A DNA stretch of 32,000 bases from Erysipelotrichaceae bacterium MTC7 (GCA_001695645.1 LVZN01000004.1:45870-77869), one strand, 5' to 3'; numbered from the stretch's first letter, positions 10,678-31,868 are shown. Program-made: numbers and translations. The notes: a model not told the origin generated them from the sequence alone.

Positions 10678-10685
10678 TTACTATC

Positions 10686-10712
10686 AAAAAAAGACGCAAT
10701 GCGTCTTTTTTT
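10686..10712. terminator. bidirectional rho-independent terminator
   Basis: AAAAAAAGACGC (10686-10697), loop AAT, GCGTCTTTTTTT (10701-10712). This is a 12-bp perfect stem including the A7/T7 arms. Confidence 0.8.
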
Positions 10713-10722
10713 GTTTTCGCAT

Positions 10723-10745
10723 AAAAAAAATGAGCCCACGCCCAT
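10723..10745 (-). terminator. possible terminator of the small membrane protein gene
   Basis: On the minus strand: ATGGGCgtggGCTCAT (6-bp stem with one G-U, overlapping the stop codon) followed by T8. Confidence 0.4.
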
Positions 10746-11053: not shown

Positions 11054-11076
11054 ATCTACACCTCGTATTAAAAATC

Positions 11077-11111
11077 AAAATCACCCCCACTTGGGAGCTA
11101 GGGGTGATTTT
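11077..11111 (-). terminator. rho-independent terminator ending the manA-PTS operon
   Basis: AAAATCACCCC (11077-11087) pairs with GGGGTGATTTT (11101-11111), with a 13-nt loop. On the minus strand a T-rich tract follows. It lies 31 nt downstream of the IID stop. Confidence 0.7.
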
Positions 11112-11141
11112 CTATTTAGTTGTAATTACTAACAGAATGTA

Positions 11142-11975
11142 TTAGTAAGATAATCCTGGGTTGAAGAATCCAATGAATACCCCAGCGAAAGCGATAACTA
11201 CCATAAGTAGCATAACTTTAATTGGTGAAACACCTTTCTTCGACATTAACCACCAGCATAATAACACAAATAACATTGTTAATACACCAGGGAAAGCACC
11301 ATCTAACGATTTTTGAAGGTTAAAGTATGGTTCTTTAGCACCTTCAGCTGTTAATGTCCAAGCCGTAGTAATACTTACCCATGACCCTGACATTGCCCCA
11401 ACGATAATTTGACCTAAGATAATTACTGATTCACGGAATGCCGTTGCTTGTTCACCAACGATCATTTCTACCGCGTTTCCTCCTAATTCATAACCTTTAT
11501 TGTAAATAAAACGCATGAACCAAGTAATTGTAATATTCCACACTACGATATAGAAGATTGGACCTAATACAGAACCACCTTCAGCAAATCCTAATGCAAG
11601 TCCTAATAATACTGGAATGTATGTACCAACGATTAGTGAATCCCCAATCCCTGCAAGTGGACCCATAAGTCCGGCACGGATACCGTTAATCATTTCATCA
11701 TCGATTTCTTCAGCTCCGTTTGCACGAGCTTCTTCAAGACCAGCTGTAATCCCTACTACGATTGCCCCAATTTGAGGTTCTGTGTTAAAGAATGGGTAGT
11801 ATGTTTGTAATTTTTCAGCTTGTTCTTCTTTACTTGAATATAATTCTTGGATAATTGGTAACATTGACCACATGTATCCAAATGTTTGCATGTGTTCGTG
11901 AGAGAACGCAGTAAGGTTCCCATAGTACCAGCGCCAGAAAGAACTATTTAATGTTTTTTTACTTAACTTTTTCAT
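11142..11975 (-). CDS. PTS mannose/fructose/sorbose family subunit IID
   Basis: Start moved to the ATG at 11975 (MKKLSKKTLNSSFWRWYY...) because AGGAGG lies 8 nt upstream and the start sits 2 nt after the IIC stop. The N-terminal WR..Y..L.A.S.E.MQ..G pattern and multiple TM helices are typical of EIID. Confidence 0.85.
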   Translation of the reverse strand: MKKLSKKTLNSSFWRWYYGNLTAFSHEHMQTFGYMWSMLPIIQELYSSKEEQAEKLQTYYPFFNTEPQIGAIVVGITAGLEEARANGAEEIDDEMINGIRAGLMGPLAGIGDSLIVGTYIPVLLGLALGFAEGGSVLGPIFYIVVWNITITWFMRFIYNKGYELGGNAVEMIVGEQATAFRESVIILGQIIVGAMSGSWVSITTAWTLTAEGAKEPYFNLQKSLDGAFPGVLTMLFVLLCWWLMSKKGVSPIKVMLLMVVIAFAGVFIGFFNPGLSY

Positions 11976-11976
11976 A

Positions 11977-12816
11977 TTAAATGTCCTCCTCGTCGTCATC
12001 ATCAATACCGCCAGCAGATACTACTTTTGGTTTGTTCATTTTGATTGTGTAGTTAACTAATGCGAAGATTCCACCAACTGCAGCTGCAGCTAATAAAGTT
12101 AATCCCATTGATTTTGCCATCGCGAATCCACCTACAAAGTAGATTAAGTCGCTTGGTTTTGTAACTACTGATTTCAATAAAATCGCCATTCCGACTGCAG
12201 GTAACAATGATCCTACAGTAAATAGTGATTTCATGTACCAAGAATCCATTGGTAATGCATCCTTGAATTCACCGATTGCATCTGCTCCATAGTATACAAG
12301 TAAAGTAACTGGAATAAATGAAATAACTAAGTGAGAAATTAATGGGAAAAATACTTCAACTTTACCGATGATTGAGAAATCACCTTTGTCTAATCTAGCC
12401 CATCCAATGTGTTGCCAAATAAGGTTCATCATTGCTGTCCCGTAGAATTGTACAGTTCCGACAGAACCTACAGCAGCACCCATAGCTCCGGCAAAGGCTT
12501 GTGCTTCAGCACCACCCATGTCCCAACCTTGAGTTTTTGCCATTGCCCACGCAAGTGGGATACCAATGTATGAAACGGCACGTAAATCCGCTGCAACTGT
12601 TCCACCAGGTGTAACAAGTGCGATATAAATAATTTGCATTGGGATAGCGATTTGGATACATCCTTGAACGTCTCCTAGAATCAACCCAACGAACAACCCA
12701 GCAATCAATGGTCTGTTTAATGTATAGTTACCAATTGATGTACCTAGGGCTGCAATTGTTGATGCTGCACATACTGACATAACTCCTAATAGTGCGGCTT
12801 GAAACCAACTAATCAT
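11977..12816 (-). CDS. PTS mannose/fructose/sorbose family subunit IIC
   Basis: 279 aa, polytopic, EII-Sor-like, positioned between IIB and IID. Unusual acidic C-terminus GGIDDDDEEDI. Confidence 0.85.
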   Translation of the reverse strand: MISWFQAALLGVMSVCAASTIAALGTSIGNYTLNRPLIAGLFVGLILGDVQGCIQIAIPMQIIYIALVTPGGTVAADLRAVSYIGIPLAWAMAKTQGWDMGGAEAQAFAGAMGAAVGSVGTVQFYGTAMMNLIWQHIGWARLDKGDFSIIGKVEVFFPLISHLVISFIPVTLLVYYGADAIGEFKDALPMDSWYMKSLFTVGSLLPAVGMAILLKSVVTKPSDLIYFVGGFAMAKSMGLTLLAAAAVGGIFALVNYTIKMNKPKVVSAGGIDDDDEEDI

Positions 12817-12864
12817 AAATTCATCTCCTTTTCTGTTTAAATAATTTAAAATAATTTATTTTCA

Positions 12865-12895
12865 CTTATTGGCAATCTCCCAAATTGCCAATAAG
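12865..12895 (-). promoter_or_regulatory. intercistronic stem-loop between PTS IIB and IIC
   Basis: Perfect 12-bp inverted repeat CTTATTGGCAAT (12865-12876) / ATTGCCAATAAG (12884-12895) with a 7-nt loop. It sits in the 103-nt IIB-IIC gap, and no clean U-tract follows on the minus strand. Confidence 0.5.
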
Positions 12896-12919
12896 ATGAA
12901 ATTGATGTTTTCGATTCGC

Positions 12920-13417
12920 TTAATCAGTGAATCCGAATTTAGATCTAAATTTAGGCCAAGATCCAATAGCCGTTTCTTTTAGTAAAGCAAAGTATACATC
13001 GTATCCCGCTTTTGTCATTTCTTCACAAGCAACTGCTTCTTCTTGTGTAATACTTTGGTTTTGTCCTAATTTCGTTGCACCTGGACGGTCATTTGCAGGT
13101 CCAATAACAACACGTTTTACATCGTTAGGAACGAATCCTTGGTGAACAAGAATTTCAGCCATATCCACTGGATTTTTTGTGATTAAGAAATATTTCTTGT
13201 CACTATCCTTTGCTTTTTGGCATTTTTGTTTCCATTCTTCCATTGTCCAGATCAATACTTTTTTATCAGTTGATGCTTTGAACGATTGTTTTAACACTGG
13301 TGTTGTTGCTGCTTTATCATTTACAGCGATAATTCCATCACATGGGTATTCTTTTGACCAACGTGTAACAATTTGACCGTGAATGATGCGGTCATCTACT
13401 CTTATAAAACTAATCAT
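12920..13417 (-). CDS. PTS mannose/sorbose family subunit IIB
   Basis: 165 aa. The N-terminal MISFIRVDDRIIHGQIVTRW carries the phosphorylatable His of the IIB-Man family. GGAGGAG RBS. Confidence 0.9.
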   Translation of the reverse strand: MISFIRVDDRIIHGQIVTRWSKEYPCDGIIAVNDKAATTPVLKQSFKASTDKKVLIWTMEEWKQKCQKAKDSDKKYFLITKNPVDMAEILVHQGFVPNDVKRVVIGPANDRPGATKLGQNQSITQEEAVACEEMTKAGYDVYFALLKETAIGSWPKFRSKFGFTD

Positions 13418-13442
13418 GTTTTTTCTCCTCCTAGATTATCTT

Positions 13443-13868
13443 TTAGATATCATCATCTTCATCGTCAGCTTTAGTTTCGAAGAAACAAAGTCCTTGTTGA
13501 CCTTCAGATAATAAACTTTCTTTAAGCATGTCACCGTCCATATTGTCTTTCATCAATACAGCAGTAACCGCAAGTGGCATATTCATCCCTGCAAATACCA
13601 TTGTGTTTGCAAGCATTCCATTTTCATCTAACACTTCAAGTGCTGTCGTAAAGGGTGACCCACTCAAGATGTCAGCTAATAAAATAATTTCATCGTCTGC
13701 ATTCATTGGATCCACTAATTTTTTAAAGTTCACTTTAAATTCAGGTGTTCCCATGTCTGCTTTTAAACTTGTACTTAATACATCGTCACGTTTTCCTGTC
13801 ATCATTTCTACAGCTGAGTGTAGACCTGGTGCAAACTCACCATGACTTACCATAATTACATATTTCAT
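13443..13868 (-). CDS. PTS mannose family subunit IIA
   Basis: Start moved from GTG 13922 to ATG 13868 (MKYVIMVSHGEFAPGL..., the EIIA-Man phospho-His context), with an AAAGGAA RBS 7 nt upstream. Acidic tail ADDEDDDI. Confidence 0.85.
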   Translation of the reverse strand: MKYVIMVSHGEFAPGLHSAVEMMTGKRDDVLSTSLKADMGTPEFKVNFKKLVDPMNADDEIILLADILSGSPFTTALEVLDENGMLANTMVFAGMNMPLAVTAVLMKDNMDGDMLKESLLSEGQQGLCFFETKADDEDDDI

Positions 13869-14031
13869 TTGTAAATTCCTTTCTACGTTTATACAATCCT
13901 GGAGTATCTTTGATTTGCTCACTTGTGTTAAAACCGCATTATTACAGCGTTTTCGCCACGCATTTACACATCACTCGAGACAATATACACATATCTATCA
14001 CATATTTTCTCATAGAAACCCCTTACAAACA

Positions 14032-14047
14032 AGTGACAAATGTCACT
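14032..14047. promoter_or_regulatory. inverted repeat AGTGACA-AA-TGTCACT at the manA stop / PTS leader
   Basis: 7-bp perfect arms separated by 2 nt, overlapping the manA TAG (14046-14048) at the start of the 177-nt manA-IIA gap (manA stop 14046 to IIA start 13868). I found no convincing sigmaA or sigma54 promoter in that gap. Confidence 0.3.
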
Positions 14048-14984
14048 AAGCAACATAACTCAATATGACGCGACAGTTTCCTTTTATTTCAAAGCACTCA
14101 CAAGCTGCTGGAATAAAGAAGCTATCGGTATACATTGCTTCTACACTGACTCCATTTGCTTCAACGATTGCGTCGTTTGCAACCACACTTAGACAAGCAA
14201 ATTTATGATGAAGCTGAATAACTTCTGTATCAACAACATCAATAAGTTCGACTATATAGTCATCATTGTTTGTTAAAATCTTACGTTTGCCTTCTTTAAT
14301 TTCATCGATGGGATTATGAATCACTTTTGATTGCAAATGAAAATCAACCACATCAAATCCTTTGTTTAAATGAAGGGGACGACCTTGTCCATGTTCATCT
14401 TTACGCCCATAATCATAAAAGCGATATGTTGTATTGGAATTGGTTCCAACTTCAATCGCTAAGATTCCTCCTCCTAGTGCATGTAGTTCACCAGCAGGTA
14501 TATGAATGAAATCACCAGCTTTGATTGGGTGGTACACCAAATACTTTTCCATATCCTCATTTGCAATTGCTTGTTTAATCAAACTTGGATCACTTACATT
14601 TGTTCCAGCTACAAGTCTAGCTCCATCTTTAGCTTCTAAAACATACCAACTTTCTGTTTTCCCAGCATCGTGATCATGTGTATTTGCGTATGCCTCATAT
14701 GGATGAACTTGAATCGATAAATCATCCTTTGCATCCAAGTACGCTGCACGTAACATCTTTTCTTCTTTTATGTCACCCAACATTTCTTTTGGATATAACT
14801 GTACAAGTTTTGCCAAACTTTCATTTGCATACGGCCCGTTCGCAATTTTTGTTGCACCATATGGATGGATACTGATCTCCCAACTGGTTCCTAGATGCGT
14901 GTCTTGTACACCACGAATTTGAGCAAGTCGGTCATTGCCCCAAATCGTTTTATCATAAATGGGTACCATTTTTAGTGGATACAT
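14046..14984 (-). CDS. manA: mannose-6-phosphate isomerase, class I (Firmicute 31x-aa type)
   Basis: Start moved to ATG 14984 (MYPLKMVPIYDKTIWGN), with AGAGG 8 nt upstream. Motifs LSIQVHP, ESWYVLEA and IPAGELHALGGGILAIEV are present. Confidence 0.85.
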   Translation of the reverse strand: MYPLKMVPIYDKTIWGNDRLAQIRGVQDTHLGTSWEISIHPYGATKIANGPYANESLAKLVQLYPKEMLGDIKEEKMLRAAYLDAKDDLSIQVHPYEAYANTHDHDAGKTESWYVLEAKDGARLVAGTNVSDPSLIKQAIANEDMEKYLVYHPIKAGDFIHIPAGELHALGGGILAIEVGTNSNTTYRFYDYGRKDEHGQGRPLHLNKGFDVVDFHLQSKVIHNPIDEIKEGKRKILTNNDDYIVELIDVVDTEVIQLHHKFACLSVVANDAIVEANGVSVEAMYTDSFFIPAACECFEIKGNCRVILSYVA

Positions 14985-15003
14985 ACTTATCACCTCTAAA
15001 GAA

Positions 15004-18540: not shown

Positions 18541-19689
18541 CTAAGTTCTTTTATACACAAGTGCCAAAAGTAATACAACAAAACCCAACAGACCAAAACA
18601 TATAAGGGTCATATCCACACCAATACTCGCAATTAAGACCCCTGAAAGTGCTGGTGTCACTAACGAAGATACCCCAACATAGATTGCTGCAGCAATGGTT
18701 TGCCCACTTGCTCGCAAATAGACTGGTGTTGCACTATTTACAATTGTTTTACTTGTGATCATGATTAATGGATAGGTAACTCCCTGCAATAAACTTGCAG
18801 CAATCACAAACTCAGGCGTTGGGGCAACTGCGGTAAAAACAAAGCGTACCATATACATAATCGTTCCAAAAACCATGAGTTTAAAATCACCAAACTTAGC
18901 GAGTAAAAAAGCCCCAGCAAAGAATAATGGAATTTCGGTAATGGCTTGAATGGACCAACGAGCACCAATCATACTTTCATTCGCCCCAAGTTCAATCAGC
19001 TTGTCATTGACGGTATACATATTGGACATATCAATGATGTTAATAAACAAAAACAACAAGACCACAATCACGTATTTGCGATCCACCACTAGTTTTTTTA
19101 CATCATCAAAGTTAATACTTGCACTTTTTGCATCTTTGATTGCATCTTGCATCAACAGCGTATATAAGAAATTAACAATTGCCATCCCCGCAAAAATAAT
19201 ACCTAAAGATTCATATCCAAAACGTTCAATGAGCATTGCTGCAACAGGTGTTCCAATCACCCAACCAATGGCTCCAAAAGCACGGATTGGTCCAAAGTTG
19301 CGTTCACAAGCTTCATCGGTTTCGATACACCATGTATCTTGCACAATCATGATGGTCCGGCTAATTCCACCAACTAAAGATGCAAAAATCAAATGCAAGA
19401 AAAACATCTGCTTTGTGACTGTATACATGACAAATGTCGCAACCGTTAAGAAAATCGACAACAGATTAAAGAATTTCTTATCCGTTTGATATTTATCACA
19501 CAGATAACCAACGACAAACTGTAAGACAATTGCGACAACCGCAACCCCTGAAAGAATGATGCCACGCTGGGCAACATCATATCCAACATAGGATAAGAAG
19601 GTTTGCATGTACGCGTACGGTACAGCAAATGCAATGAATGACAGAAAGTAAAACCCCATCATTAACGCCATATTTTTTGTAATTTTCAT
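18541..19689 (-). CDS. MFS transporter
   Basis: 382 aa, about 12 hydrophobic segments, GGGGGA RBS. It lies 8 nt downstream of the PMI paralogue stop. Substrate unknown. Confidence 0.7.
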   Translation of the reverse strand: MKITKNMALMMGFYFLSFIAFAVPYAYMQTFLSYVGYDVAQRGIILSGVAVVAIVLQFVVGYLCDKYQTDKKFFNLLSIFLTVATFVMYTVTKQMFFLHLIFASLVGGISRTIMIVQDTWCIETDEACERNFGPIRAFGAIGWVIGTPVAAMLIERFGYESLGIIFAGMAIVNFLYTLLMQDAIKDAKSASINFDDVKKLVVDRKYVIVVLLFLFINIIDMSNMYTVNDKLIELGANESMIGARWSIQAITEIPLFFAGAFLLAKFGDFKLMVFGTIMYMVRFVFTAVAPTPEFVIAASLLQGVTYPLIMITSKTIVNSATPVYLRASGQTIAAAIYVGVSSLVTPALSGVLIASIGVDMTLICFGLLGFVVLLLALVYKRT

Positions 19690-19697
19690 GATTCCCC

Positions 19698-20639
19698 CTA
19701 TACATTTCGATAACTTGCTAAAAATAAATCCATCGTCCCATCAAATTGTAAATCGTGACAGCTTTCAGGAACAAGTACTGTTTCTCCTTTTTTGATTGGT
19801 ACGTCGTTAATCGTTCCAGCACCCTCAACACATGTATAAAACCCAAAACGGTCATAAACAAAATGTCCGTTACCATTTACAACGATGCGTTTCAAAGTAT
19901 ATAACCCAGGTTGTTCAAAGTAATGTGTAACTAGAAGTCCATCTTGCTTGATGGCTTCATGATGAACAAAACCAACGGATGTATCTGGAATATTCAAGTT
20001 TTTAATAAATGCATCAACCTGCAAATCTCGCTGTTTCTTCGTATGTGGATCGATGCGTTCATAATCATACAAGCGAAGTGTACAATCTGCATTTCGCGAG
20101 ATGTTGTACGTTAGTACATCCGTACCAATCGCATGCAACGTACCACATGGAATATCTAAATAATCATCAACTACAACCGGAATGTAAGATATCAATTGCT
20201 TCCATGCTTTCGCATCAATCAAATCAAGAAGTTCCTTTTTACTTGTTGCTGTATGTCCAAAAGCGATGGTTCCATCATCTGGTGCATCAAGTACAACCCA
20301 TGCTTCAGGTTTCCCGCGACCACCGTTGTAAGCTTTTGCAAATGGATCATCCGGATGTAGTTGAATGGACAAAGGTGCTTCTGGATCAAGAATGTTTACA
20401 CGAATTGGTAACTCATCTGTATCACAGCAAAACCATTCTGGATGTGTTTTATAAAGTTTGGATAAGGTGGTATCCATTTCCTCTACACAACAATCCGCAT
20501 GGTTTTCTAAAGCCACAACATTGTATACCTCTCCAACAGGATACACATCTGTGTGATAATCATATCGCTCAATCAAACGCTTACCTCCCCACATTCGTTC
20601 CTCAAAATATGGTTGTATTTTTACAATTCTTTGATCCAT
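19698..20639 (-). CDS. class I mannose-6-phosphate isomerase paralogue
   Basis: Start moved to ATG 20639 (MDQRIVKIQPYFEERMWGG), with AAGGAG 7 nt upstream. Motifs LSIQLHP, EAWVVLDA and IPCGTLHAIG are present. It is clearly diverged from the copy at 14046-14984. Confidence 0.8.
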   Translation of the reverse strand: MDQRIVKIQPYFEERMWGGKRLIERYDYHTDVYPVGEVYNVVALENHADCCVEEMDTTLSKLYKTHPEWFCCDTDELPIRVNILDPEAPLSIQLHPDDPFAKAYNGGRGKPEAWVVLDAPDDGTIAFGHTATSKKELLDLIDAKAWKQLISYIPVVVDDYLDIPCGTLHAIGTDVLTYNISRNADCTLRLYDYERIDPHTKKQRDLQVDAFIKNLNIPDTSVGFVHHEAIKQDGLLVTHYFEQPGLYTLKRIVVNGNGHFVYDRFGFYTCVEGAGTINDVPIKKGETVLVPESCHDLQFDGTMDLFLASYRNV

Positions 20640-20654
20640 AAACACGCTCCTTTG

Positions 20655-21215
20655 TTACTCTAAATTTGCATGGCGACCAAACATCGTGTCGCTGTCTTTT
20701 CCTTGTTTATCCATTAACATCATAATGGCAATATCCATAAACAATCCTTCACTTTGTTCGAAAAGTGAACCCATCGGTTGTTTTGAAATCACTGCTCCTT
20801 GTTTCGCTGCTTTTGGACTTGATGCTGCAATTAAAACAACAACATCTGCCAAAGCTTGCATACTACTTGATTCACTTAAGGTGATTAAAGCAATTTTTGC
20901 ACCTTCCGCTTTTGCTTTTTTTGCATGCTCAACCAACGATTTTGTTTCTCCTGATCCTGAGCAAATTACCAGCACATCACCTTTTTTAATGTTTGGTGTT
21001 ACCGTCTCTCCTACAACATAGCTTTTCAAACCCATGTGCATCAAACGCATCGCAAACCCTTTAACTTGAAAACCGCTCCGTCCAGCTCCTGCACAGAAAA
21101 TCTCATCTGCATCATCAATGAGCGAGACAAAAGCTTCTGCTGCCTCTGGCTTTATGCTATGTAAACTTTGCTGTAACTCATTAAGGACGAGTTCTACATA
21201 TGCTTGTTCACTCAT
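20655..21215 (-). CDS. hxlB: 6-phospho-3-hexuloisomerase (SIS domain)
   Basis: 186 aa. AGAGRSGFQVKGFAMRLMHMG, VLVICSGSGET and QPMGSLFEQS are typical of PHI. ATGA overlap with the upstream HPS gene. Confidence 0.8.
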   Translation of the reverse strand: MSEQAYVELVLNELQQSLHSIKPEAAEAFVSLIDDADEIFCAGAGRSGFQVKGFAMRLMHMGLKSYVVGETVTPNIKKGDVLVICSGSGETKSLVEHAKKAKAEGAKIALITLSESSSMQALADVVVLIAASSPKAAKQGAVISKQPMGSLFEQSEGLFMDIAIMMLMDKQGKDSDTMFGRHANLE

Positions 21216-21850
21216 TTTGATGCCTCCACCATTTTTTCTTTCATCGCTTTTGCGATGGCTACTGGATCACTTGCTGTCGTAATCGCACCACCAACAACGA
21301 TGATACCTGGTTGCTGAGCAATAATTTCATCAATGGTTGTTAGTTTCACGCCACCAGCAACCGCACTTTGTGAAGTACTTCGACTGTTATTTATAACTTT
21401 TAATTCTGCTAACGGGTTTTGTCCTGTTGCTTGTACATCAAATGCTGTGTGACAACAAATATAGTCAACACCTAGTGCTTCCACTTCTTTGGTACGCTTT
21501 GCCATATCTTCCACACAAATCATATCCATCATCACTTTTCCGCCAAACCGCTTTGCAGCTGCAACTGCTCCAGTGATGGTTTCATCATGCGTAACACCTA
21601 GTACAGTGACATAATCAGCTCCTGCTGCAAACGCACCCGATGCTTCCAAATCACCGGCATCCATAATTTTTGTATCTGCAAGTACCTCCAAGTTTGGGTA
21701 TCTCTCTTTTAATACTTTTACCGGTTCGTTTCCAGCTTCTAATAGAAACGGTGTTCCAACTTCCAAGATATCAACATAGTCTTGGATTTGATCAATTAAA
21801 GTAATACATTCCTTTAACGTTAACGTATCCAATGCTACTTGTAATTTCAT
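21212..21850 (-). CDS. hxlA: 3-hexulose-6-phosphate synthase (OMP-decarboxylase superfamily; a KGPDC-type enzyme cannot be excluded)
   Basis: 212 aa. MKLQVALD, ILEVGTP, ADTKIMDAG and VVGGAIT are present. The pairing with PHI favours HPS. Confidence 0.7.
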   Translation of the reverse strand: MKLQVALDTLTLKECITLIDQIQDYVDILEVGTPFLLEAGNEPVKVLKERYPNLEVLADTKIMDAGDLEASGAFAAGADYVTVLGVTHDETITGAVAAAKRFGGKVMMDMICVEDMAKRTKEVEALGVDYICCHTAFDVQATGQNPLAELKVINNSRSTSQSAVAGGVKLTTIDEIIAQQPGIIVVGGAITTASDPVAIAKAMKEKMVEASK

Positions 21851-21853
21851 ATA

Positions 21854-22618
21854 TTATTCGCTCCTTACTGTAATAATTTTCTTAACACTTGCTACTTGTT
21901 GTAGCTTTTGTGGATCACTTTCATCAGTCACAAGATAGTCATAGTCTGCAAACTTTCCATAAATATAAGTACTTGTTTTATCAAACTTACTTGCATCACA
22001 AACGATGATGTTTTTACGACTGTTATGACAGACGTGTTTTCGTACTTCCGCTTCTTCTAACGAGAATGTAGTAAATCCATCACAACCTTTAAAGCCATCA
22101 CTTCCCATGAAAGCAGCATCGATTTTAATGGTGTCAATCACATCACTTGCGTAAATGCCAACCAACGCTTTCCCACGTTTTTGCAGCATCCCGCCACAGA
22201 CGATTACGTCATGATTTCCTTCCGCTGCAATATTGGCAATCGTGATGGAGTTAGTCAGAATCGTTAGGTTTTGTTTTACTGCTAACAATTTTGCAATTTG
22301 GATACATGTACTTCCTGGATCCAAATAGACAATCGTATTATCTTCAATCAGGTCAAGTGCAGCTCGTGCAATTTGCCGTTTTGCATCCAAGTTCTCTTGA
22401 AGTTTGACGTCAAGTGGTAATTGATAGTACTCATTGATGACACTTGCAACACCGTGTCCCTTGTGAATAATGCCTCGACGATCTAAATATTCCAAATCCT
22501 TGCGAATGGTTTCTAGCGATACCTGAAACGTATCCGCAAGCTCTTTCACTTTTACTTCGCCTTCGCTTAAAACCAGTTTTGATATTTCATCTCTACGTAT
22601 TTTAGTTTTTTTTGCCAT
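21854..22618 (-). CDS. DeoR family transcriptional regulator
   Basis: 254 aa. N-terminal HTH (VKELADTFQVSLETIRKDLEYLD) plus a C-terminal DeoR sugar-phosphate sensor domain. First gene of the HPS operon. Confidence 0.85.
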   Translation of the reverse strand: MAKKTKIRRDEISKLVLSEGEVKVKELADTFQVSLETIRKDLEYLDRRGIIHKGHGVASVINEYYQLPLDVKLQENLDAKRQIARAALDLIEDNTIVYLDPGSTCIQIAKLLAVKQNLTILTNSITIANIAAEGNHDVIVCGGMLQKRGKALVGIYASDVIDTIKIDAAFMGSDGFKGCDGFTTFSLEEAEVRKHVCHNSRKNIIVCDASKFDKTSTYIYGKFADYDYLVTDESDPQKLQQVASVKKIITVRSE

Positions 22619-22764: not shown

Positions 22765-23505
22765 TTAGTATGTGTCGCTTGTTTCTTTGGCACCATTAAC
22801 AGCAAGTACCACTGGCGTACTCTTGTAACCAATCCCCATACGATCAATTCCCATGTCAATGAGTTCAAAGAAGTGTTCTTGTGTACGAATACAACCGCTA
22901 CCTTTGATTTTTACACGACCTTTGCATTGATCCATCATGATTGCGATTACTTCTTTACTCGCTCCATGTGCCTCATGTCCAGTTAAGAATCCCGTACTAG
23001 TTTTCACAAAGTCCGCTTTTGCCGCGATGGCACATTCACATGCTTGACGAATTTCTGCTTCCGTCAATGCATCCGTTTCAAAAATAACTTTTAGTTCCAC
23101 TCCGTATTCGTGTGTTACTTTCGCAACTGCAGCAATATCAGCAGTCACTTCATCCCACATACCACTACGAATCCAACCGTAGTTAGCAACAATGTCAAGT
23201 TCTCCAATTGCATCTGCATAATCTTTTAAAATCAATCGTGCTTGCTCCACTTTTGATGCCGTTGTAGATTGTCCAAAAGGAAAATCACAAACCGGACACA
23301 CTTTTGTATCGCTACCTTTACACATCGAAGCAGCAAGTTCTACTGCCCATGGATTAACACAAACCGTTGCACATCCATAATCAATTCCCTCTTGAATGTA
23401 CTTCTTGGTATCTTCAAGTGTAAATTCTGGTTTTAGCACACTTTGATCGATGTATCTTGCTAGTTCTGCACGAGTCATTTCATTTGCTTTCTTACTTGGT
23501 TTCAT
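22765..23505 (-). CDS. DeoC/DERA-family class I aldolase, divergent 246-aa paralogue
   Basis: Start moved to ATG 23505 (MKPSKKANEMTRAELARYIDQSVLKP), with AGGAGG 9 nt upstream. Motifs VCVNP, CDFPFGQ, LKVIFET and ADFVKTSTGF (Schiff-base Lys context) are present. Confidence 0.8.
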   Translation of the reverse strand: MKPSKKANEMTRAELARYIDQSVLKPEFTLEDTKKYIQEGIDYGCATVCVNPWAVELAASMCKGSDTKVCPVCDFPFGQSTTASKVEQARLILKDYADAIGELDIVANYGWIRSGMWDEVTADIAAVAKVTHEYGVELKVIFETDALTEAEIRQACECAIAAKADFVKTSTGFLTGHEAHGASKEVIAIMMDQCKGRVKIKGSGCIRTQEHFFELIDMGIDRMGIGYKSTPVVLAVNGAKETSDTY

Positions 23506-24363: not shown

Positions 24364-24777
24364 TTATCGTAAATGTTTATCAATGATGTCACAGCAACTT
24401 ACGATCGCTTTGACACACACCTTTTTCTTACCTTGTATTCTTTGACCATCATCCATTGCTAGTAAATCGTGGCAGTCCTTTGCCCCATTGCATGCTTCAA
24501 ATTCTTGTAACATTTGTTCAATTTTTGCATAGGTTGCCTCTTTTTTTTGCTTGTCGACATCCAATGCCTGGCATAGATGCATCGAAGCAACCATCACCAT
24601 GCCACAGGCAGCTCCACACACATCCCCACTGTGAGCGATTCCTCCACCAAAGCCTTGCGACAAACGAAAACTAGTGACTTCATCAACACCATAAGTTTCA
24701 CTATACGCACAAAATACGCTTTGTGCACAATTGTATCCTTCTTGAAATAACTTCATTGCTTGGTTTTCTTGGTTCAT
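24364..24777 (-). CDS. C_GCAxxG_C_C family (putative redox-active) protein
   Basis: Start moved to ATG 24777, with AAGGAG 6 nt upstream. Motifs YNCAQSV, GFGGGI, VCGAACGMVM and the C-terminal CxxxxxxCC pattern are characteristic of this family. Confidence 0.75.
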   Translation of the reverse strand: MNQENQAMKLFQEGYNCAQSVFCAYSETYGVDEVTSFRLSQGFGGGIAHSGDVCGAACGMVMVASMHLCQALDVDKQKKEATYAKIEQMLQEFEACNGAKDCHDLLAMDDGQRIQGKKKVCVKAIVSCCDIIDKHLR

Positions 24778-24800
24778 AAACAACTCCTTTATCTACTTGC

Positions 24801-24830: not shown

Positions 24831-24850
24831 AAATGGTGGTAAGAAAATAG

Positions 24851-24886
24851 AAAAGCCTCCTTTGGTTACCAAGCAAAGAGGCTTTT
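24851..24886 (-). terminator. rho-independent terminator ending the GRE operon
   Basis: AAAAGCCTC (24851-24859) pairs with GAGGCTTTT (24878-24886), with an inner TTGG/CCAA stem. On the minus strand CTATTTTCTT follows. It lies 34 nt after the activase stop. Confidence 0.7.
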
Positions 24887-24919
24887 CTACGTATTGATTC
24901 ATCTATTTCGTTTATATTG

Positions 24920-25816
24920 TTAGCCACCGATCTTCAGTTTCACGTTTAAGTTCTGTGCCTTTTCAATATATTTATCAAGTACTTTTGGATCCATCGCTTT
25001 GCGACTTAACGTGTACGGACGTTGCATTTTTTCATACTTTGCAATACCTAAGGTGTGGTACGCTAGAAAATTCACTTCTTTGACATGTTGTACACTTGCC
25101 AGTTTTAAGATGTCGAGCAAGGTTGCTTCATCGTCGTTAAAGCCAGGAATGACTGGCACACGATAGATGACTTTATCCGGTTGCAACATTTTTGCATGAT
25201 GAAGTGGACGAAGTCCATCACCACCACAAACATCACGAATCATGTTTGGATTGCTGTGTTTAATATCAAGCAAGTATAAGTCCACATAGGGATCAATCGC
25301 TTCTCTTTGCGCATCTGAAAAATTACCACAGGTTTCAATTGCAACATGATAATTTGCTGCTTTCAGTCGCTTGCAGAAAGCTAACAGCGCTGGATATTGA
25401 TCAAAGGGTTCGCCTCCAGAAATCGTTACGCCTCCTTGACTGGCTTTATAGTAATCATCATCTTTTGCGATTTCTTCCATCAAAGAATCGATACTGCGAT
25501 ATTCACCTATAAGACTTAAAGCATCATCCAAACAAGCATCCACGCAAGCTTGTACTTTATCTGCCTTGCTTTTATCATAATGAAATACCTCGTTTGGAAA
25601 ACTGATAGGTGAATCTTCTAAAGCATGTACGCATCGATGACAATGGACACATTTCTTTTTGTCGTAAAAGAGGGTCGGTTTACTTTCCTGTGATTCAGGA
25701 TTTGCACACCATGGGCAATGCAAATGACACCCTTTCAAAAACACTGTAGTTCGAATACCTGGACCATCATGGGTAGCAAAACGTTCGACATTAAATACGT
25801 TAATCAAAGAGTTCAC
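24920..25816 (-). CDS. glycyl-radical enzyme activating enzyme (radical SAM)
   Basis: 298 aa. N-terminal HDGPGIRTTVFLKGCHLHCPWCANPE (CX3CX2C at C30/C34/C37). A Cys-rich insert follows (CVHCHRC ... CVDAC), as in activases of non-PFL GREs. The GTG start overlaps the GRE 3' end by 17 nt. Confidence 0.85.
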   Translation of the reverse strand: MNSLINVFNVERFATHDGPGIRTTVFLKGCHLHCPWCANPESQESKPTLFYDKKKCVHCHRCVHALEDSPISFPNEVFHYDKSKADKVQACVDACLDDALSLIGEYRSIDSLMEEIAKDDDYYKASQGGVTISGGEPFDQYPALLAFCKRLKAANYHVAIETCGNFSDAQREAIDPYVDLYLLDIKHSNPNMIRDVCGGDGLRPLHHAKMLQPDKVIYRVPVIPGFNDDEATLLDILKLASVQHVKEVNFLAYHTLGIAKYEKMQRPYTLSRKAMDPKVLDKYIEKAQNLNVKLKIGG

Positions 25817-28064
25817 GACTCATCAACTCCTCTTGGATATCTTTCGTTAAGTTAACGAAAATCGCACTGTATCCAGCAACTCTAACAATCAAGTCAGGAT
25901 AGTTTTCTGGATGTTTTTGTGCATCTTCAAGAACTCCGCGATCCACTACGGTTACCATTAATTGACACCCACCTTTTTTAAAGTATGTATCAAATAAGAT
26001 TTTTATTTTTTCACGGTCTTGATTAAACATTCTTGGAGTAAATTTAATGTTTTGCACACTACCACCATGATATTTTGCATTGAATGTAGATAGTGAATTC
26101 AACAAAGCGGTTGGTCCGCTTTTCGCTGCTCCACCTTGAGGGTTATTTGCAGGATTTAAGTAGACACCTTTTTTACGTCCATCAAGACTTGCACCGGTTT
26201 GGTGTCCCCAGTCCGTGTTGGTTTGATTATTACTAATCACAATTAAGTAATATTGCATGCCTTTTTCAATTCCACGATCACGAATTCCTTTTGCCACATA
26301 CTCGTACAGATCATTAGCTAAGCTATCACACGCCGTGTCATCATTTCCATACTTTGGTTCATCCCATAGGGCTTTACGAATTTCTTCATAACCTTCATAG
26401 TTTGCCAATGCTGCTTGCCATAATTGTTCAAGCGTATATTCTTTTTTATCAAAAACCAAACGTTTAACAGCGAATAAAGCATCCGATGTATTGATATTTC
26501 CGTAGGTTTCGTTGGTTCCACCTAAGTAGCGAACACCACCATCCAACAATGCTTTACCTTTGCTTAAGCAATCATCCATTAAGATGGATGTAAATAAGAA
26601 ACTCACTTCTTGGTTCATCACTTCATAACTGTGGTATTGTGCTTCCACACTTAAATCGAAGTAGTAAGCCAAGACCTTCTTATACCCATTATACATCTCT
26701 TCAAAGGTTTTATAACTACTTAATTTTGGTAAATCGTATGGAACTTTGACTTTTTGATCCATCGGATCAATTCCGCCATTTAAAAAGATGTTATAAATCT
26801 TTGTTAAGTTCAATAAGGTATTTGGCGTACCTACACTTTGTCCTTGAATGACATATTCTCCACAACCAAAAGGAATGTATTGTTCTGCTGTTTTTTTGTC
26901 AACACGCATCGCGTATTGAACTGCAGGAACATTGACATCATCATTGTATAACGTTGGATAGGTTGCACCACTACCTAAACAATCGTAGGCAGCATCCATT
27001 ATATCCGATGGTGTATTTGTATCAAAACGTAACGTGAATTGTGGTTCAACGTATCTTGTTGCTTTACATACTTTTAAACACAGTCTTGCAAATGCATCTC
27101 CTGCTTCAGGATATTCACGTCCTTTACCCCCAACAATAATTCGACCATTCACTGTTGTACGGCGATTTTCGATCATCTTCCATAACGAAGCAACGTAACG
27201 GTATGCTTCTTTTTCATCGATCGTTCCATTAGCTAAATCGTTAACTAAGAACGGACCAAATACATCATCCATACGACCATAGTTAATAACTCCAGCAACT
27301 AGAGCGTATAGCCAGAATAGTTGCATTGCTTGGTGAAGTGTTTTTGGTTTTTCGTGTTTGATCACTTTTAAATCTTGTTCCATCAAATCAAGATCACGTA
27401 ATCTTGATGCACTTGCACCAACACGTGCCTGTTCAATTTTTACCAATTGCGCTTCGATGACTGTTTGCAGCAATTCGATACTTTCTGCAGCAGCTTTGAT
27501 AAACTCGTTTTGCTCTTGCTTTTGGATGTGATCGAAAAGTCCATCCAACCCTAGACACATCAACTTTTTGTAGTCCAGCATCATACCACTCAAACGCGCA
27601 GTGGCCATGAATGGATATTCACAATCGATAAACCGCCCAGTTGTTGTGTCGTTAAGAACATCTTGAGCGTAGATTGCTTTTACATCGTGTTCAACCCAGT
27701 AATCGTAAAGATCATCGACACGCTTTTTTTCATCCGCATGATCAAGTTCATCTTTAAACGCACGTAACTTATGGAACACACAGTAGTGACCAACCCCACC
27801 TACGCTTGTTACACTACCAAATCCGATGGGTAGAAAATCCAAGCGTCCAGCTAATAAGTCATCTTCTTCAATCGAACGAAAGTTTCTTGGAAAGATCGTT
27901 TTTAAACATTCAATTTCTCTTTTCGCTTTATCAAAGCCACTATGTTCTTTGTGTGCTTTGGTATATGCCTCCATGATTTCCAATTGTTCGATTGGTGTTT
28001 TTTCACTTGCAATTTGTTTTGATACTTCGACGTTTTGTGCGCCATCTACGCTAATCCTTTTCAT
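25800..28064 (-). CDS. glycyl radical enzyme, PFL2/eliminase-like, substrate unknown
   Basis: 754 aa. C-terminal glycyl-radical motif IVRVAGYSAIFVNL (Gly731, codon 25872-25874). Cys-loop IPFGCGEYV (Cys401 at 26862-26864, Glu403 at 26856-26858). AAGGAG RBS. Confidence 0.85.
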   Translation of the reverse strand: MKRISVDGAQNVEVSKQIASEKTPIEQLEIMEAYTKAHKEHSGFDKAKREIECLKTIFPRNFRSIEEDDLLAGRLDFLPIGFGSVTSVGGVGHYCVFHKLRAFKDELDHADEKKRVDDLYDYWVEHDVKAIYAQDVLNDTTTGRFIDCEYPFMATARLSGMMLDYKKLMCLGLDGLFDHIQKQEQNEFIKAAAESIELLQTVIEAQLVKIEQARVGASASRLRDLDLMEQDLKVIKHEKPKTLHQAMQLFWLYALVAGVINYGRMDDVFGPFLVNDLANGTIDEKEAYRYVASLWKMIENRRTTVNGRIIVGGKGREYPEAGDAFARLCLKVCKATRYVEPQFTLRFDTNTPSDIMDAAYDCLGSGATYPTLYNDDVNVPAVQYAMRVDKKTAEQYIPFGCGEYVIQGQSVGTPNTLLNLTKIYNIFLNGGIDPMDQKVKVPYDLPKLSSYKTFEEMYNGYKKVLAYYFDLSVEAQYHSYEVMNQEVSFLFTSILMDDCLSKGKALLDGGVRYLGGTNETYGNINTSDALFAVKRLVFDKKEYTLEQLWQAALANYEGYEEIRKALWDEPKYGNDDTACDSLANDLYEYVAKGIRDRGIEKGMQYYLIVISNNQTNTDWGHQTGASLDGRKKGVYLNPANNPQGGAAKSGPTALLNSLSTFNAKYHGGSVQNIKFTPRMFNQDREKIKILFDTYFKKGGCQLMVTVVDRGVLEDAQKHPENYPDLIVRVAGYSAIFVNLTKDIQEELMSRELFD

Positions 28065-28076
28065 ATTTGCTCCTTC

Positions 28077-28826
28077 TTAGTGTTTTGCTTTTTCAGCATC
28101 TCTCCAGTTATCTTGATATCCACTTAGTAAATCCACGAAACGTTTTGCAGTTAAGTGTGGACGTGTAATCGCACTACCAACAACAACACTATGCGCCCCT
28201 AAGAAAATACATTTCATTGCATCTTCCGGTGTGTATAAGTGACCTTCCATCATCACGTATGCATCATCCTTAAAATCACGACACATTCTTGCAAATTCAC
28301 GTAAATCCGGCTCTTCAATATGGGCAGTTTCTTTTGTATACCCATATAGCGTTGGTGCAATGATGTCTGCTCCATTTTCAATCGCACGTTTGGCTTCATC
28401 ATAGTTTGAGATATCAGCGAAAATAATTGCTTCAGGAATTTCTTTCTTTACTTCCTTAATCAAATCCCAAGCTTGTGTTTTTTCGTGGGTGATTTGACTT
28501 GTACAGTCTAAAGCAATAATTTCTGCTCCAGCTTCCCATACTTGTTTTGCGCTTTCTAAAGTTGGTGTAATGAACACATCTGTATCATCATGCCAGATTT
28601 TGTATAAACCAATCATCGGTAAATCCACTTTATCTTTAATTGCTTTGATTTGTTCGGGTGAGTTTGCACGAATGGCAACCGCACCAGCCCACTTTGCCGC
28701 TTCTGCCATTTTCACAACAATGTCATCCGTGTAAATTGGATCATCGTGTTGAACCTGACAAGAAACAATCAATCCTCCTTTTAAACTTTCTAACAAGGTT
28801 CTTTTCTTTTCATCTGTCGTTTTCAT
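28077..28826 (-). CDS. NanE-family (ManNAc-6-P 2-epimerase-like) protein, divergent 249-aa paralogue
   Basis: GGLIVSCQVQHDDPIY, AVAIRAN, LPMIGLYKIWH, IALDCT and VVGSAITRP are colinear with the nanE at 4978-5649 but clearly diverged, with a 25-aa C-terminal extension. ATGA overlap with the upstream DeoR gene. Confidence 0.7.
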   Translation of the reverse strand: MKTTDEKKRTLLESLKGGLIVSCQVQHDDPIYTDDIVVKMAEAAKWAGAVAIRANSPEQIKAIKDKVDLPMIGLYKIWHDDTDVFITPTLESAKQVWEAGAEIIALDCTSQITHEKTQAWDLIKEVKKEIPEAIIFADISNYDEAKRAIENGADIIAPTLYGYTKETAHIEEPDLREFARMCRDFKDDAYVMMEGHLYTPEDAMKCIFLGAHSVVVGSAITRPHLTAKRFVDLLSGYQDNWRDAEKAKH

Positions 28827-29545
28827 TCAACTTCTCCTTCTTCTGTAATGATGCTTGTAAACTCTAGAGTATCTGCATATGCATATGTAGCTTGTATTTC
28901 ACTTTTACTTGTGTCGACCAAAAGGTAGTTATTTTTGCTACGACGTAAGACCATTTCTTTAATCAAACCGTTGTCAGCTTCTACCACATAGACTTTTCCT
29001 TCTTCCAAGGAATATCCGTTTGCACTAAGGAAAGCGCGATCAAAATGTAAGCGACTGACTTCAGAAATCGTTTTTGATCCCCAAGTCATGTTGTACTTTG
29101 GATTGAATGTTCCTCCAATTAATGTCACTGGAATGTTATAGGTGCGAAAATGACTAACCAAATACAGTGAATTCGTCACAATTTGGACATTTCGACCAAC
29201 CAAATGCTCAACCATGTATAGCGTTGTTGTCCCTGAATCAACAAAAATGGTCTCACCATCTTGAATGCAACTGACAGCTTTTCGGGCAATGATTTCTTTT
29301 GCTTCTTTCTGTTCGAGAATTTTCTCTTCAACAACAAGTTCATCCCCCTGGTTTACACGTTGAAAGCTTGAGGCAATAGCACCTCCTCTTTCACGCATCA
29401 ACTGTCCCGTATCTTCTAGTTTTCGTAAATCCCTTTGAACTGTTGATAGCGAAACTTGCAAGTCACTTGCCAAGGTATGAATATCTATGGCTTGATCCTT
29501 TTGCAGTTGGTCTAAAATATAATACAATCGTTCTTTTGCTAGCAT
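28823..29545 (-). CDS. DeoR family transcriptional regulator (first gene of the GRE operon)
   Basis: The ORF track starts at TTG 29551. The ATG at 29545 (MLAKERLYYILDQL) has AGGAG 7 nt upstream. HTH (IHTLASDLQVSLSTVQRDLRKLE) plus a DeoR C-terminal domain. Confidence 0.85.
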   Translation of the reverse strand: MLAKERLYYILDQLQKDQAIDIHTLASDLQVSLSTVQRDLRKLEDTGQLMRERGGAIASSFQRVNQGDELVVEEKILEQKEAKEIIARKAVSCIQDGETIFVDSGTTTLYMVEHLVGRNVQIVTNSLYLVSHFRTYNIPVTLIGGTFNPKYNMTWGSKTISEVSRLHFDRAFLSANGYSLEEGKVYVVEADNGLIKEMVLRRSKNNYLLVDTSKSEIQATYAYADTLEFTSIITEEGEVE

Positions 29546-29565: not shown

Positions 29566-29594
29566 AATATAAACCCATCGCACGTCATATTCAA
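29566..29594 (-). promoter_or_regulatory. candidate sigmaA promoter of the DeoR-NanE-like-GRE-activase operon
   Basis: On the minus strand: TTGAAT (29589-29594), 17 nt, TATATT (29566-29571). It lies 21 nt upstream of the ATG at 29545. Confidence 0.45.
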
Positions 29595-29618
29595 TCACTT
29601 TATGTCATATTCGGTCAC
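29584..29618 (-). promoter_or_regulatory. phased direct repeats in the GRE operon leader (candidate DeoR operator)
   Basis: GTCATATTCAATCAC (29584-29598) and GTCATATTCGGTCAC (29604-29618) are 13/15 identical and 20 bp apart. The first copy overlaps the -35. A third core, TGTCATATT, lies at 29691-29699. Confidence 0.5.
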
Positions 29619-30506: not shown

Positions 30507-31868
30507 TTAGTTTTCAATTCTAGTAAATATCGCAGTTACCATATCATTGAGGAATTTGTCTAGTTTTCTTGCATTAAGTAAATCACTATTGTCTTGTTCT
30601 TTTACATCAAGATTACGCAGAGCAGCAAACAACTCTTTAACTTGAATATTGATCGAAATCGAAACTGTAAATGAACTCATATTTGACTTCAAAAACAAAC
30701 TGTTAAATTTATTTTTGAATGTCGTCATATCGACTATATCTTTATATTTTTCTATGGATAATTCTAAATCGAATGGCAGTTGATCGTTTGTTATATGATA
30801 ACGACGACCGACTTCTTGAAACAATGTTCTTAATTCTTCTCTTGTTACATCTCTTTTGAATTCCACATCTCCAAGCCAGGTACCCCAGTTATTTGAAAAT
30901 TTTAAATTTGGTGTAATTTGTATTTCAAATAATTGGTCTTTCACACAAATTGTCTTTTCATGAAGAATTGATAATTTATTTGTCTCGCTGTATAAACTCT
31001 TTCCTTGGGTAACATTATTACCTGGGTGGATACGCATACACACATCTCCATCACTTACTTGTAACGACATCATCGATACATATCCTTTATTATATTTCGA
31101 TAAATCAATCCAATAATCGTTACGTTTTACAGTATATTCATAGCTACTTTCTGCATCACCCTTTAATAAATCAATTAAGTAATTTAGCCGTTTTTTAATC
31201 AGATCTTCTTGTGTCACATATAATTGAGATAGTGGTAGTTCTGGAAAGAAATCTGGTAATCTATTTTTCACATGTTCAATATAATCATTTAAAATGATAT
31301 CCTGTCCATTCAATTCGTCATTCAGATCGAGTAACTCAGTCAACACTTGTTTCCAAGTTACAGATACTAACTCATGACCTTCTAAAGTAACATCACCATC
31401 TTTACGTTTATTAGAATATGCTTCAATCTGGGAGATTAACTGTTCCCTAGCATCTTCATTAGTTTTTTTTGCTTCAATTAAGATCAATGTCTTTCCAAAT
31501 AAAATTGATATATCGGGAATAAGCCTGTCATTTTCATCCACTTCAAAATCCACAAATTTTTCAAAGTTTCCTAAGCTCTCGGTAGTTAGGGTAATTCCTA
31601 CTAAATTGTCGATAGCAAAATCCATCTTTGCTAACTCTTTGATTGACTTTTGAATCATTACTTCTTGATCTGCTATATCTTTTGTGCTGTAAATTGAAAA
31701 TGTATCATGCTTGTTTGCTTTCAACTCACGATCAATAAACTTTATGAATCGATTCATACTAATCTCACTATTTTTTAAAACAATTGAAAGATTTCTTGTA
31801 GAGTTATTTTCAATTGGTAAAGCATCTTTTTGTGTAAAATATTCAAAAATATTCAATTTGTTTCTCAT
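30507..31868 (-). CDS. hypothetical protein with a PD-(D/E)xK nuclease-like motif
   Basis: 453 aa. RLIPDISILFGKTLILIEAKK gives D119 ... E132-A-K134 (31467-31517) in the canonical beta-strand spacing. Spot counts show it is much more AT-rich than the rest of the window. GAGG RBS. Confidence 0.5.
   Translation of the reverse strand: MRNKLNIFEYFTQKDALPIENNSTRNLSIVLKNSEISMNRFIKFIDRELKANKHDTFSIYSTKDIADQEVMIQKSIKELAKMDFAIDNLVGITLTTESLGNFEKFVDFEVDENDRLIPDISILFGKTLILIEAKKTNEDAREQLISQIEAYSNKRKDGDVTLEGHELVSVTWKQVLTELLDLNDELNGQDIILNDYIEHVKNRLPDFFPELPLSQLYVTQEDLIKKRLNYLIDLLKGDAESSYEYTVKRNDYWIDLSKYNKGYVSMMSLQVSDGDVCMRIHPGNNVTQGKSLYSETNKLSILHEKTICVKDQLFEIQITPNLKFSNNWGTWLGDVEFKRDVTREELRTLFQEVGRRYHITNDQLPFDLELSIEKYKDIVDMTTFKNKFNSLFLKSNMSSFTVSISINIQVKELFAALRNLDVKEQDNSDLLNARKLDKFLNDMVTAIFTRIEN

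Follow-up and report, generated by a model that had tools for sequence, protein, structure and literature searches.

What could a radical enzyme have to do with a sugar-phosphate epimerase made from the same transcript? Glycyl-radical enzymes (GREs), which are sensitive to oxygen, catalyse the reactions of gut anaerobes that are chemically the most demanding, and whenever a function has been assigned to a new one, a nutrient that had been missed has come to light, as with choline, hydroxyproline, isethionate and 1,5-anhydroglucitol. The question is raised by a stretch of 32,000 nucleotides from Erysipelotrichaceae bacterium MTC7 (GCA_001695645.1 LVZN01000004.1:45870-77869; hereafter the window, with coordinates counted from its first letter). 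There, four genes of the minus strand form one tight unit that runs from promoter to terminator: a DeoR-family regulator (DeoR1), a paralogue of the epimerase NanE, a GRE and its radical S-adenosylmethionine (radical-SAM) activase. A preliminary description of the window had seen in them a radical phosphosugar pathway, completed by a DeoC-like aldolase encoded further downstream. This answer is supported in part: what holds is a new GRE of the phosphosugar type whose NanE-type partner is conserved and dedicated, and what does not is the scheme that couples it to DeoC.

Placing the glycyl-radical enzyme

The GRE of the window has 100% identity to the protein recorded at NCBI for MTC7. It has the features that define the GRE superfamily, namely a PFL-like barrel, a C-terminal glycine-radical domain with the motif RVxG[FWY], a cysteine in the Cys loop and an activase encoded next to it. 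Its radical glycine is G731, in RVAGYS, and its Cys loop reads FG-C401-G-E403; C401, E403 and G731 are invariant among 50 sequences of the family and its sisters. A Cys-x-Glu (CXE) loop is the mark of the 1,2-eliminase and isomerase classes of GREs (PMC13450708), and it is with these that the motif groups the enzyme. Pyruvate formate-lyase was considered and set aside: the loop holds a single Cys and no Cys-Cys pair, and TIGR01255 yields 91 bits against a cut-off of 994.

Which of the known eliminases or isomerases, then, is it? The curated equivalog models all remain far below their cut-offs (HypD 264/1100, HpfG 241/1000, CutC 235/1050, and 212 bits against 1109 for the PflD model NF007437), as does the broad PFL2/GD subfamily model, with 296 bits against 678. 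Among solved structures the best sequence scores, about 215 bits (maximum 218), are a tie between HypD, glycerol dehydratase and YbiW, and identity to solved GREs spans 20-28%. An AlphaFold (AF2) model built from an alignment of 50 sequences, sister families included, reached a pLDDT of 86.7 and a pTM of 0.90; an earlier model from 15 sequences, with a pLDDT of 62 and disordered Cys and Gly loops, was discarded. Compared with the PDB by Foldseek, the model matches all eliminase and isomerase GREs alike (TM about 0.82, range 0.81-0.83, at 20-24% identity), and no single known GRE stands out as the nearest. In a representative library of 1.8 billion proteins the family is a cluster of its own, with next relatives that are 33-52% identical and also about 750 residues long. 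A June 2026 review of GREs includes no enzyme of this family, and we found in the literature no published description of this GRE, or of any GRE paired with a NanE-type epimerase. The preliminary description had placed the enzyme outside the characterised clades and had called for a comparison with all of them; run by profiles, PDB sequences and Foldseek, this comparison found none that claims it. Judged by its sequence, the GRE belongs to no characterised clade and is a new family.

With the GRE 1,2-eliminases (glycerol dehydratase, propanediol dehydratase, HypD, CutC, IslA/HpsG) the enzyme has in common the fold, the CXE loop and the glycine loop, and for this reason a ketyl-radical elimination is its likely chemistry. 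It differs from them in its surroundings, which lack genes for microcompartments, for an aldehyde dehydrogenase and for proline or sulfonate metabolism. It also departs from them in sequence: the loop bearing His164 in glycerol dehydratase is deleted, and the substrate-contacting strand is rich in Asn, Gln and Thr.

The NanE paralogue as a dedicated partner

When one genome of each species was scanned, relatives of the GRE came up in at least 271 species; the 80 best loci, 62-75% identical to the window GRE, were used to measure linkage. Of these 80 loci, 75 have the activase (adjacent to the GRE in 69 to 75), 67 have a DeoR gene no more than 3 kb from the GRE, and 57 have a NanE-like gene, which in 54 is no more than 3 kb away. 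The usual gene orders, on one strand, are GRE-activase-DeoR-NanE or DeoR-NanE-GRE-activase. When four canonical-type NanEs were excluded and the count was restricted to loci with full flanks, the GRE-type NanE subfamily occurred in 32 of 50 genome loci, 29 of these within 3 kb. The reverse test, in which metagenomes were scanned with the NanE-like subfamily as anchor, gave 80 loci; wherever the flanks were full (at least 4.5 kb on both sides) this GRE was present (44/44), and the eight loci without one are truncated contigs. It is because of this reverse linkage that the paralogue can be called a dedicated partner of the GRE.

What else keeps them company? In a Pfam census of 123 open reading frames (ORFs) adjacent to the operons, the only recurrent families are HAD phosphatases and components of the phosphoenolpyruvate-dependent sugar phosphotransferase system (PTS); no aldolase, kinase or dehydrogenase recurs there, and nanA, nanK, nagA and nagB are not among the recurrent neighbour families of the GRE loci. 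With PTS genes, DeoR regulators and HAD sugar phosphatases recurring, and sister GREs linked to PTS genes as well, a phosphosugar substrate is the best reading, as the preliminary description had it, and we consider that the GRE almost certainly acts on a phosphorylated sugar.

The same neighbourhoods are far less favourable to the remainder of the earlier scheme, in which the epimerase sets the configuration at C2, the product of the GRE is a deoxy-sugar phosphate, and this is cleaved in a dedicated third step by the DeoC-like protein encoded at 22765-23505. To be fair, this gene passes the deoC equivalog (183 bits against 117) and lies 1.4 kb downstream of the unit, and DeoC-family genes are present in a few related islands (at 5037-5768 in locus L008, for instance). 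However, only one of the 80 loci has a DeoC gene at 3 kb or less from the GRE, and five have one at 10 kb or less. In the window, the DeoC-like gene stands behind a strong terminator, with its own DeoR regulator (DeoR2) and promoter-like site, and a higher-scoring DeoC (247 bits) is encoded elsewhere, at 753-1433. Thus, of the two co-occurrences that had been expected, that of NanE holds and that of DeoC does not, and a DeoC-catalysed third step is very improbable. The other downstream genes fared no better: the genes for 3-hexulose-6-phosphate synthase (HPS), 6-phospho-3-hexuloisomerase (PHI), the major facilitator superfamily (MFS) transporter and C_GCAxxG are near the GRE in none of the 80 loci, and these, together with ManA and DeoC, were dropped as GRE-linked on the neighbourhood counts. 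Fructose-6-phosphate aldolase (FSA) was similarly rejected as a general partner, with an FSA-like gene within 10 kb in 3 of 80 loci and none in the window.

The partner itself belongs to the TIM-barrel family of NanE and is 40-45% identical to the solved NanEs (S. aureus 6VVA/7MFS, C. perfringens 4UTT). It passes the family models (PF04131, 170 bits against 27; NF002231, 245 against 189) and has a conserved C-terminal extension of 15 residues. In the S. aureus numbering, structure and mutagenesis have assigned catalysis to Gln11, Arg40, Lys63, Asp124, Glu180 and Arg208, and contacts with the acetamide group to Tyr149 and Phe72 (PMC8482478). The same work bears out what the preliminary description had supposed, that the chemistry of NanE requires an enolisable C1 carbonyl (PMC8482478). 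The six catalytic residues are invariant in 54 of 54 GRE-linked sequences (Q24, R53, K76, D138, E194 and R222 in the window), and so is the equivalent of Tyr149 (Y163), while at that of Phe72 (F85) 50 sequences have Phe and 4 have Tyr. The subfamily is tight, with 65-90% identity, and yet around the active site it has diverged from canonical NanE, with R64 changed to I/V, Y66 to H, N182 to H and G204 to S. Two of these changes, His for Asn182 and Ser for Gly204, fall at the two phosphate-binding turns. The residue that follows the catalytic Lys is V or I, and not basic, in 50 of 54 sequences, and next comes Trp-His instead of x-Tyr; the first NanE signature, x-P-x-I-G-I-x-K-[basic], is accordingly broken (LPMIGLYKI in the window), while the second, VG[SG]AxTR, is present. 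The paralogue is therefore best described as a putative hexose-6-phosphate 2-epimerase.

Might it simply be an ordinary N-acetylmannosamine 6-phosphate (ManNAc-6-P) 2-epimerase of amino-sugar or sialic-acid catabolism, a mere regulon-mate of a GRE whose substrate is chemically unrelated? The score on NF002231 and the retained catalytic and acetamide residues would fit, as would a canonical-type NanE that occupies the same position in locus L047, and the mannose-type PTSs met in these neighbourhoods, which most resemble Aga (amino-sugar) systems. Yet, unlike NanE, the paralogue is never in a nan or nag context and always with the GRE, and its first signature and phosphate turns are altered. Moreover, a separate NanE of the canonical kind is encoded in the window, at 4978-5649 (318 bits on NF002231, against 245; LPVIGIVKR; 37% identical to the paralogue), so that the paralogue is not the housekeeping enzyme. 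A plain ManNAc-6-P epimerase is, for these reasons, a quite improbable answer.

Transport, order of the enzymes and chemistry

Sister GRE families, 45-55% identical, sit beside orthologous PTS genes of the fructose or galactitol type. In Clostridium and Vibrio such a GRE is accompanied by a GntR regulator and a fructose-type PTS; in Irregularibacter, by a galactitol-type PTS, polyol-phosphate dehydrogenases, cupin isomerases, a GFO/IDH/MocA oxidoreductase and an HAD phosphatase. The fructose-type PTS, 58-64% identical across the GRE families, is better conserved than the GREs themselves, and it shares 44% identity with FrwC, encoded at the pflD locus of E. coli. Seen through its gene neighbourhoods, the whole clade of GREs of about 750 residues appears to consist of enzymes that act on sugar or polyol phosphates supplied by a PTS.

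The type of PTS matters. The NanE paralogue accompanies the GRE in every one of the 8 loci whose PTS is of the mannose/sorbose type, as against 1 of 9 with a fructose-type EIIABC (Fisher p = 4e-4). The former include loci of Listeria, Enterococcus, Enorma and Lachnospiraceae, and both arrangements are seen within Lacrimispora and its relatives. By sequence, the GREs of loci with and without NanE are interleaved, and a search for residues that discriminate between them found none, which disposed of the idea of two isofunctional GRE subgroups. It follows that the same GRE serves either a fructose-type PTS alone or a mannose-type PTS with the epimerase. The simplest reading of these 17 loci is that the epimerase acts upstream of the GRE, converting a second, C2-epimeric sugar phosphate into the substrate of the radical enzyme.

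Two E. coli enzymes offer the obvious term of comparison. YbiW and PflD reportedly are, according to a 2024 study, C-O lyases of 1,5-anhydroglucitol-6-phosphate and 1,5-anhydromannitol-6-phosphate, that is, GRE isomerases of an 'anhydroglycolysis'. Their structures are available (PDB 8ID7, 8ID0, 8YJO). The likenesses are several: a CXE loop, an own activase, a PTS-delivered substrate, and two C2-epimeric sugars to be handled. The GRE neighbourhoods also contain a fructose-type PTS (the relative of FrwC) and Cof-type HAD phosphatases, reminiscent of ybiV beside ybiW. The differences are no less clear. With 754 residues, the GRE is about 50 residues shorter than YbiW (810; PflD has 765), it has its own invariant motifs (GFGSVTSxGGxGHYC, RRTTVNGR, ISNNQTNTDWG), and its family has no conserved FSA aldolase. 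Where E. coli uses two GREs for two epimers, we find here a single GRE and an epimerase. No NanE gene is present at the E. coli ybiW or pflD locus, in keeping with the earlier statement that a NanE-type partner is not part of that pathway.

The two systems do meet in some genomes. In two loci of Erysipelotrichales (L008 and L015), a true PflD operon, made of a PflD orthologue 54-57% identical to the E. coli protein, its activase and an FSA aldolase, lies 2-3 kb from the GRE module and convergent to it (15366-20766 in L008, about 12043-17443 in L015). Beside this operon stands a divergent pair of genes for a DeoR regulator and a canonical-type NanE, so that NanE-family genes flank both GRE types in these islands. 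An adjacency of PflD and NanE was rejected as a general rule, since PflD orthologues of Clostridium and Thermophilibacter have no NanE nearby. Membership of the GRE in the YbiW/PflD clade was rejected as well, on its 26% identity to YbiW and 28% to PflD, on its NF007437 score and on its being distinct from the true PflD within the same locus; and as one genome holds both, the new GRE is not a simple replacement of PflD. The preliminary description had nevertheless gone too far in stating that nothing around the operon matches the context of characterised GREs, for the fructose-type PTS, the Cof-type HAD phosphatases, FSA genes in three genomes (the third being an FSA-like gene downstream of the GRE in L025) and two nearby PflD operons all recall YbiW and PflD.

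Is the GRE then an analogue of these enzymes? It would open the ring of a 1,5-anhydrohexitol-6-phosphate, such as the gluco epimer where PflD serves the manno one, to give a 1-deoxy-ketose-6-phosphate cleaved by an aldolase, of the FSA type or another, which in genomes with both GREs could be common to the two; the NanE paralogue would come second and take the open-chain keto product as its substrate, or be accessory. The CXE motif, the relative of FrwC, the recurrent Cof-type phosphatases and the FSA genes just mentioned agree with this view. So do the changes in the paralogue at phosphate positions and by the catalytic Lys, which make that pocket more hydrophobic (I/V, W), as would befit a substrate that binds in a shifted register and carries a methyl ketone. 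On the other side, the GRE is no closer to YbiW and PflD than to HypD, GD or CutC, and an FSA-like aldolase is near it in just 3 of 80 loci. The residues kept for the C1-aldehyde oxygen (Q, R, K) and the C5-hydroxyl relay (E) argue for an aldose-6-phosphate as against a 1-deoxy-ketose. That the presence of NanE depends on the type of PTS speaks for an action before the routes converge, and PflD elsewhere does without a nearby NanE. We regard an anhydrohexitol substrate as unlikely, while holding it well ahead of both the ordinary epimerase and the DeoC-coupled step.

In the reading that we prefer, and to which we would give about even chances of being right, DeoR controls a pair of enzymes: a neofunctionalised 2-epimerase supplies a PTS-derived derivative of hexose-6-phosphate, in one of its two C2 configurations, to a GRE of the CXE type, an eliminase or isomerase. 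The gene content, the two-way linkage, the conserved catalytic residues, the remoteness from known GREs and the PTS pattern are shown; that the substrate is a phosphosugar, which enzyme acts first and what kind of elimination takes place are what we infer. In this two-enzyme catabolic module, the sugar would be imported and phosphorylated by a PTS. The epimerase, acting ahead of the GRE, would use its Lys to deprotonate C2 of the open-chain aldehyde and, by reprotonation from the opposite face, yield the epimer that the GRE accepts. The mannose-type PTSs would deliver the other C2 epimer, while the fructose-type PTS would deliver the right one and render the epimerase dispensable. The GRE, activated by its own radical-SAM partner, would be a Cys-x-Glu 1,2-eliminase or isomerase specific for one C2 epimer of the hexose-6-phosphate derivative. 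Its Cys thiyl radical would take a hydrogen at or next to C2, E403 would deprotonate the neighbouring hydroxyl, and the resulting ketyl radical would expel the adjacent leaving group. Since no further dedicated enzyme is conserved, the product would enter central metabolism via housekeeping enzymes. The retained acetamide contacts Y163 and F85, together with the Aga-like PTS, weakly hint that the sugar may resemble an N-acyl-hexosamine.

Several points weigh against such a module. For plain N-acetylglucosamine 6-phosphate or ManNAc-6-P a radical enzyme is hard to justify, because NagA and NagB already do the job. The correlation between PTS type and NanE comes from 17 loci, perhaps six to eight independent events, and in 63 of the 80 loci there is no PTS nearby. 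As a canonical-type NanE stands beside the GRE in L047, the paralogue may not differ from NanE in specificity. Finally, PflD and FSA near the module in L008 and L015, and the FSA-like gene of L025, are a better fit to an anhydro-sugar pathway, where the chemistry of NanE would have no obvious upstream role.

The unit, its surroundings and its reach

The coordinates of the unit and of the gene that follows it are collected in the table.

Table. Features of the four-gene unit and its immediate downstream neighbour in the window.
Feature	Position	Strand	Evidence or remark
Promoter-like site and repeats	29566-29618	-	probable DeoR operator
DeoR1, first gene of the unit	28823-29545	-	HTH_DeoR (PF08220) 3e-09; DeoRC (PF00455) 1e-38
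GRE-linked NanE paralogue, 249 aa	28077-28826	-	PF04131 4e-50; NF002231 245 bits vs cut-off 189
GRE, 754 aa	25800-28064	-	PFL-like (PF02901) 1.8e-112; Gly_radical (PF01228) 7e-27
Radical-SAM activase for the GRE	24920-25816	-	TIGR02494 284 bits vs cut-off 174
Intrinsic terminator hairpin, then U-rich tail, ending the unit	24847-24890	-	-22.7 kcal/mol, z = -5.45
C_GCAxxG_C_C putative redox protein, directly after the terminator	24364-24783		own promoter-like site TTGAAA-18-TAGAAT, 24830-24801

The junctions and boundaries given in the preliminary description were all verified. DeoR1 (end 28823) and the NanE-like gene (start 28826) share an ATGA overlap, a gap of 12 nt separates the end of the latter (28077) from the start of the GRE (28064), and the GRE (end 25800) overlaps the activase, which has a GTG start at 25816, by 17 nt. 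In most homologous loci this last overlap is 8 nt, hence the true start of the activase in the window may be further downstream. The activase has the motif CxxxCxxC (CHLHCPWC) and extra ferredoxin-like cysteines. DeoR1, whose start codon is ATG 29545 or TTG 29551, has the layout of its family, an N-terminal HTH_DeoR domain and a C-terminal DeoRC sensor. Upstream, at 29594-29566, the promoter-like site (-35 TTGAAT, 17-nt spacer, -10 TATATT) is overlapped by two direct repeats of 15 nt, at 29584-29598 and 29604-29618 and 20 nt apart, with the exact core GTGA(Y)(Y)GAATATGAC (repeat sequences GTGAYYGAATATGAC). The 9-mer core occurs at just these two sites in the whole window, against 0.38 expected by chance, and the repeats are a probable DeoR operator. 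Upstream of 75 related modules the core has loose matches in only 9, so its conservation across them is not established. At the other end, none of 200 shuffles matched the stability of the terminator hairpin, which was absent from the output of a simple terminator scan.

Downstream of the unit come DeoR2, the DeoC-like gene, DeoR3, HPS, PHI, a ManA-like protein and an MFS transporter. This is the neighbourhood that had been described earlier, save that not every neighbour is a sugar-phosphate enzyme or a DeoR regulator, for the non-sugar C_GCAxxG_C_C gene directly follows the terminator. HPS, PHI, the ManA-like isomerase (below the manA cut-off) and the transporter form a DeoR3-controlled set on the minus strand (18541-22618), ribulose monophosphate-type genes in a gut Erysipelotrichaceae, with no link to the GRE elsewhere. 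A second sugar cluster occupies 4978-14993, also on the minus strand. It comprises the canonical NanE, a GntR/UTRA regulator, a protein of 580 residues (6418-8160) without Pfam match but with a C-terminal half like phosphomannose isomerase (PMI), two cupin-type glucose-6-phosphate isomerase (GPI) proteins (8163-9524), a mannose-type PTS (IID/IIC/IIB/IIA, 11142-13922) and a type I PMI (14046-14993). As neither nanA nor nanK is there, the canonical NanE too is in an unusual context. The PMI-like protein and the 260-residue GPI cupin (8742-9524) are 53% and 52% identical to a pair encoded in Irregularibacter muris (L091, 3943-5706 and 5723-6493), directly upstream of a sister GRE that is 51% identical to that of the window; two separate genomes thus connect the pair with the GRE clade. 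The segment 30000-32000, at the margin of the sugar island, with a G+C content of 0.32 against about 0.38 elsewhere and an ORF of 453 codons on the minus strand (30507-31868), may be foreign DNA.

Among the carriers of the 80 best hits are Erysipelotrichales, Lachnospiraceae, Peptacetobacter, Coriobacteriia, Enterococcus, Listeria immobilis, Lacticaseibacillus, Christensenella and Dysgonomonas, and single clusters at 90% identity contain from hundreds up to 1750 metagenomic sequences. In Thomasclavelia ramosa (L004/L005, 1-9675 and 15828-17135), conjugation genes (TraG/VirD4-like, TrbL, PrgI, CHAP lysozyme) adjoin the GRE module, and an insertion sequence (DDE_Tnp_1) interrupts an HAD gene located between DeoR/AraC genes and a group of NanE, mannose-PTS and GFO/IDH/MocA genes, which suggests that the module travels on a mobile element.

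What would this mean for gut anaerobes? Tentatively, and at somewhat less than even chances, the PTS-linked GREs of about 750 residues, this family and its sisters at 33-55% identity, could form an unexplored branch of radical sugar-phosphate catabolism. This family would bring about a C2-stereospecific radical elimination or rearrangement of a hexose(amine)-6-phosphate, a chemistry so far undescribed for GREs, and a neofunctionalised NanE would act as a funnel for both C2 epimers, in place of a duplication of the GRE such as E. coli has in YbiW and PflD. The compact core of two enzymes, the exclusive partner and the PTS pattern together lead to a short, testable list of candidate substrates. 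The GRE family is widespread in gut bacteria, and identifying its substrate would show how radical enzymes handle epimeric sugars.

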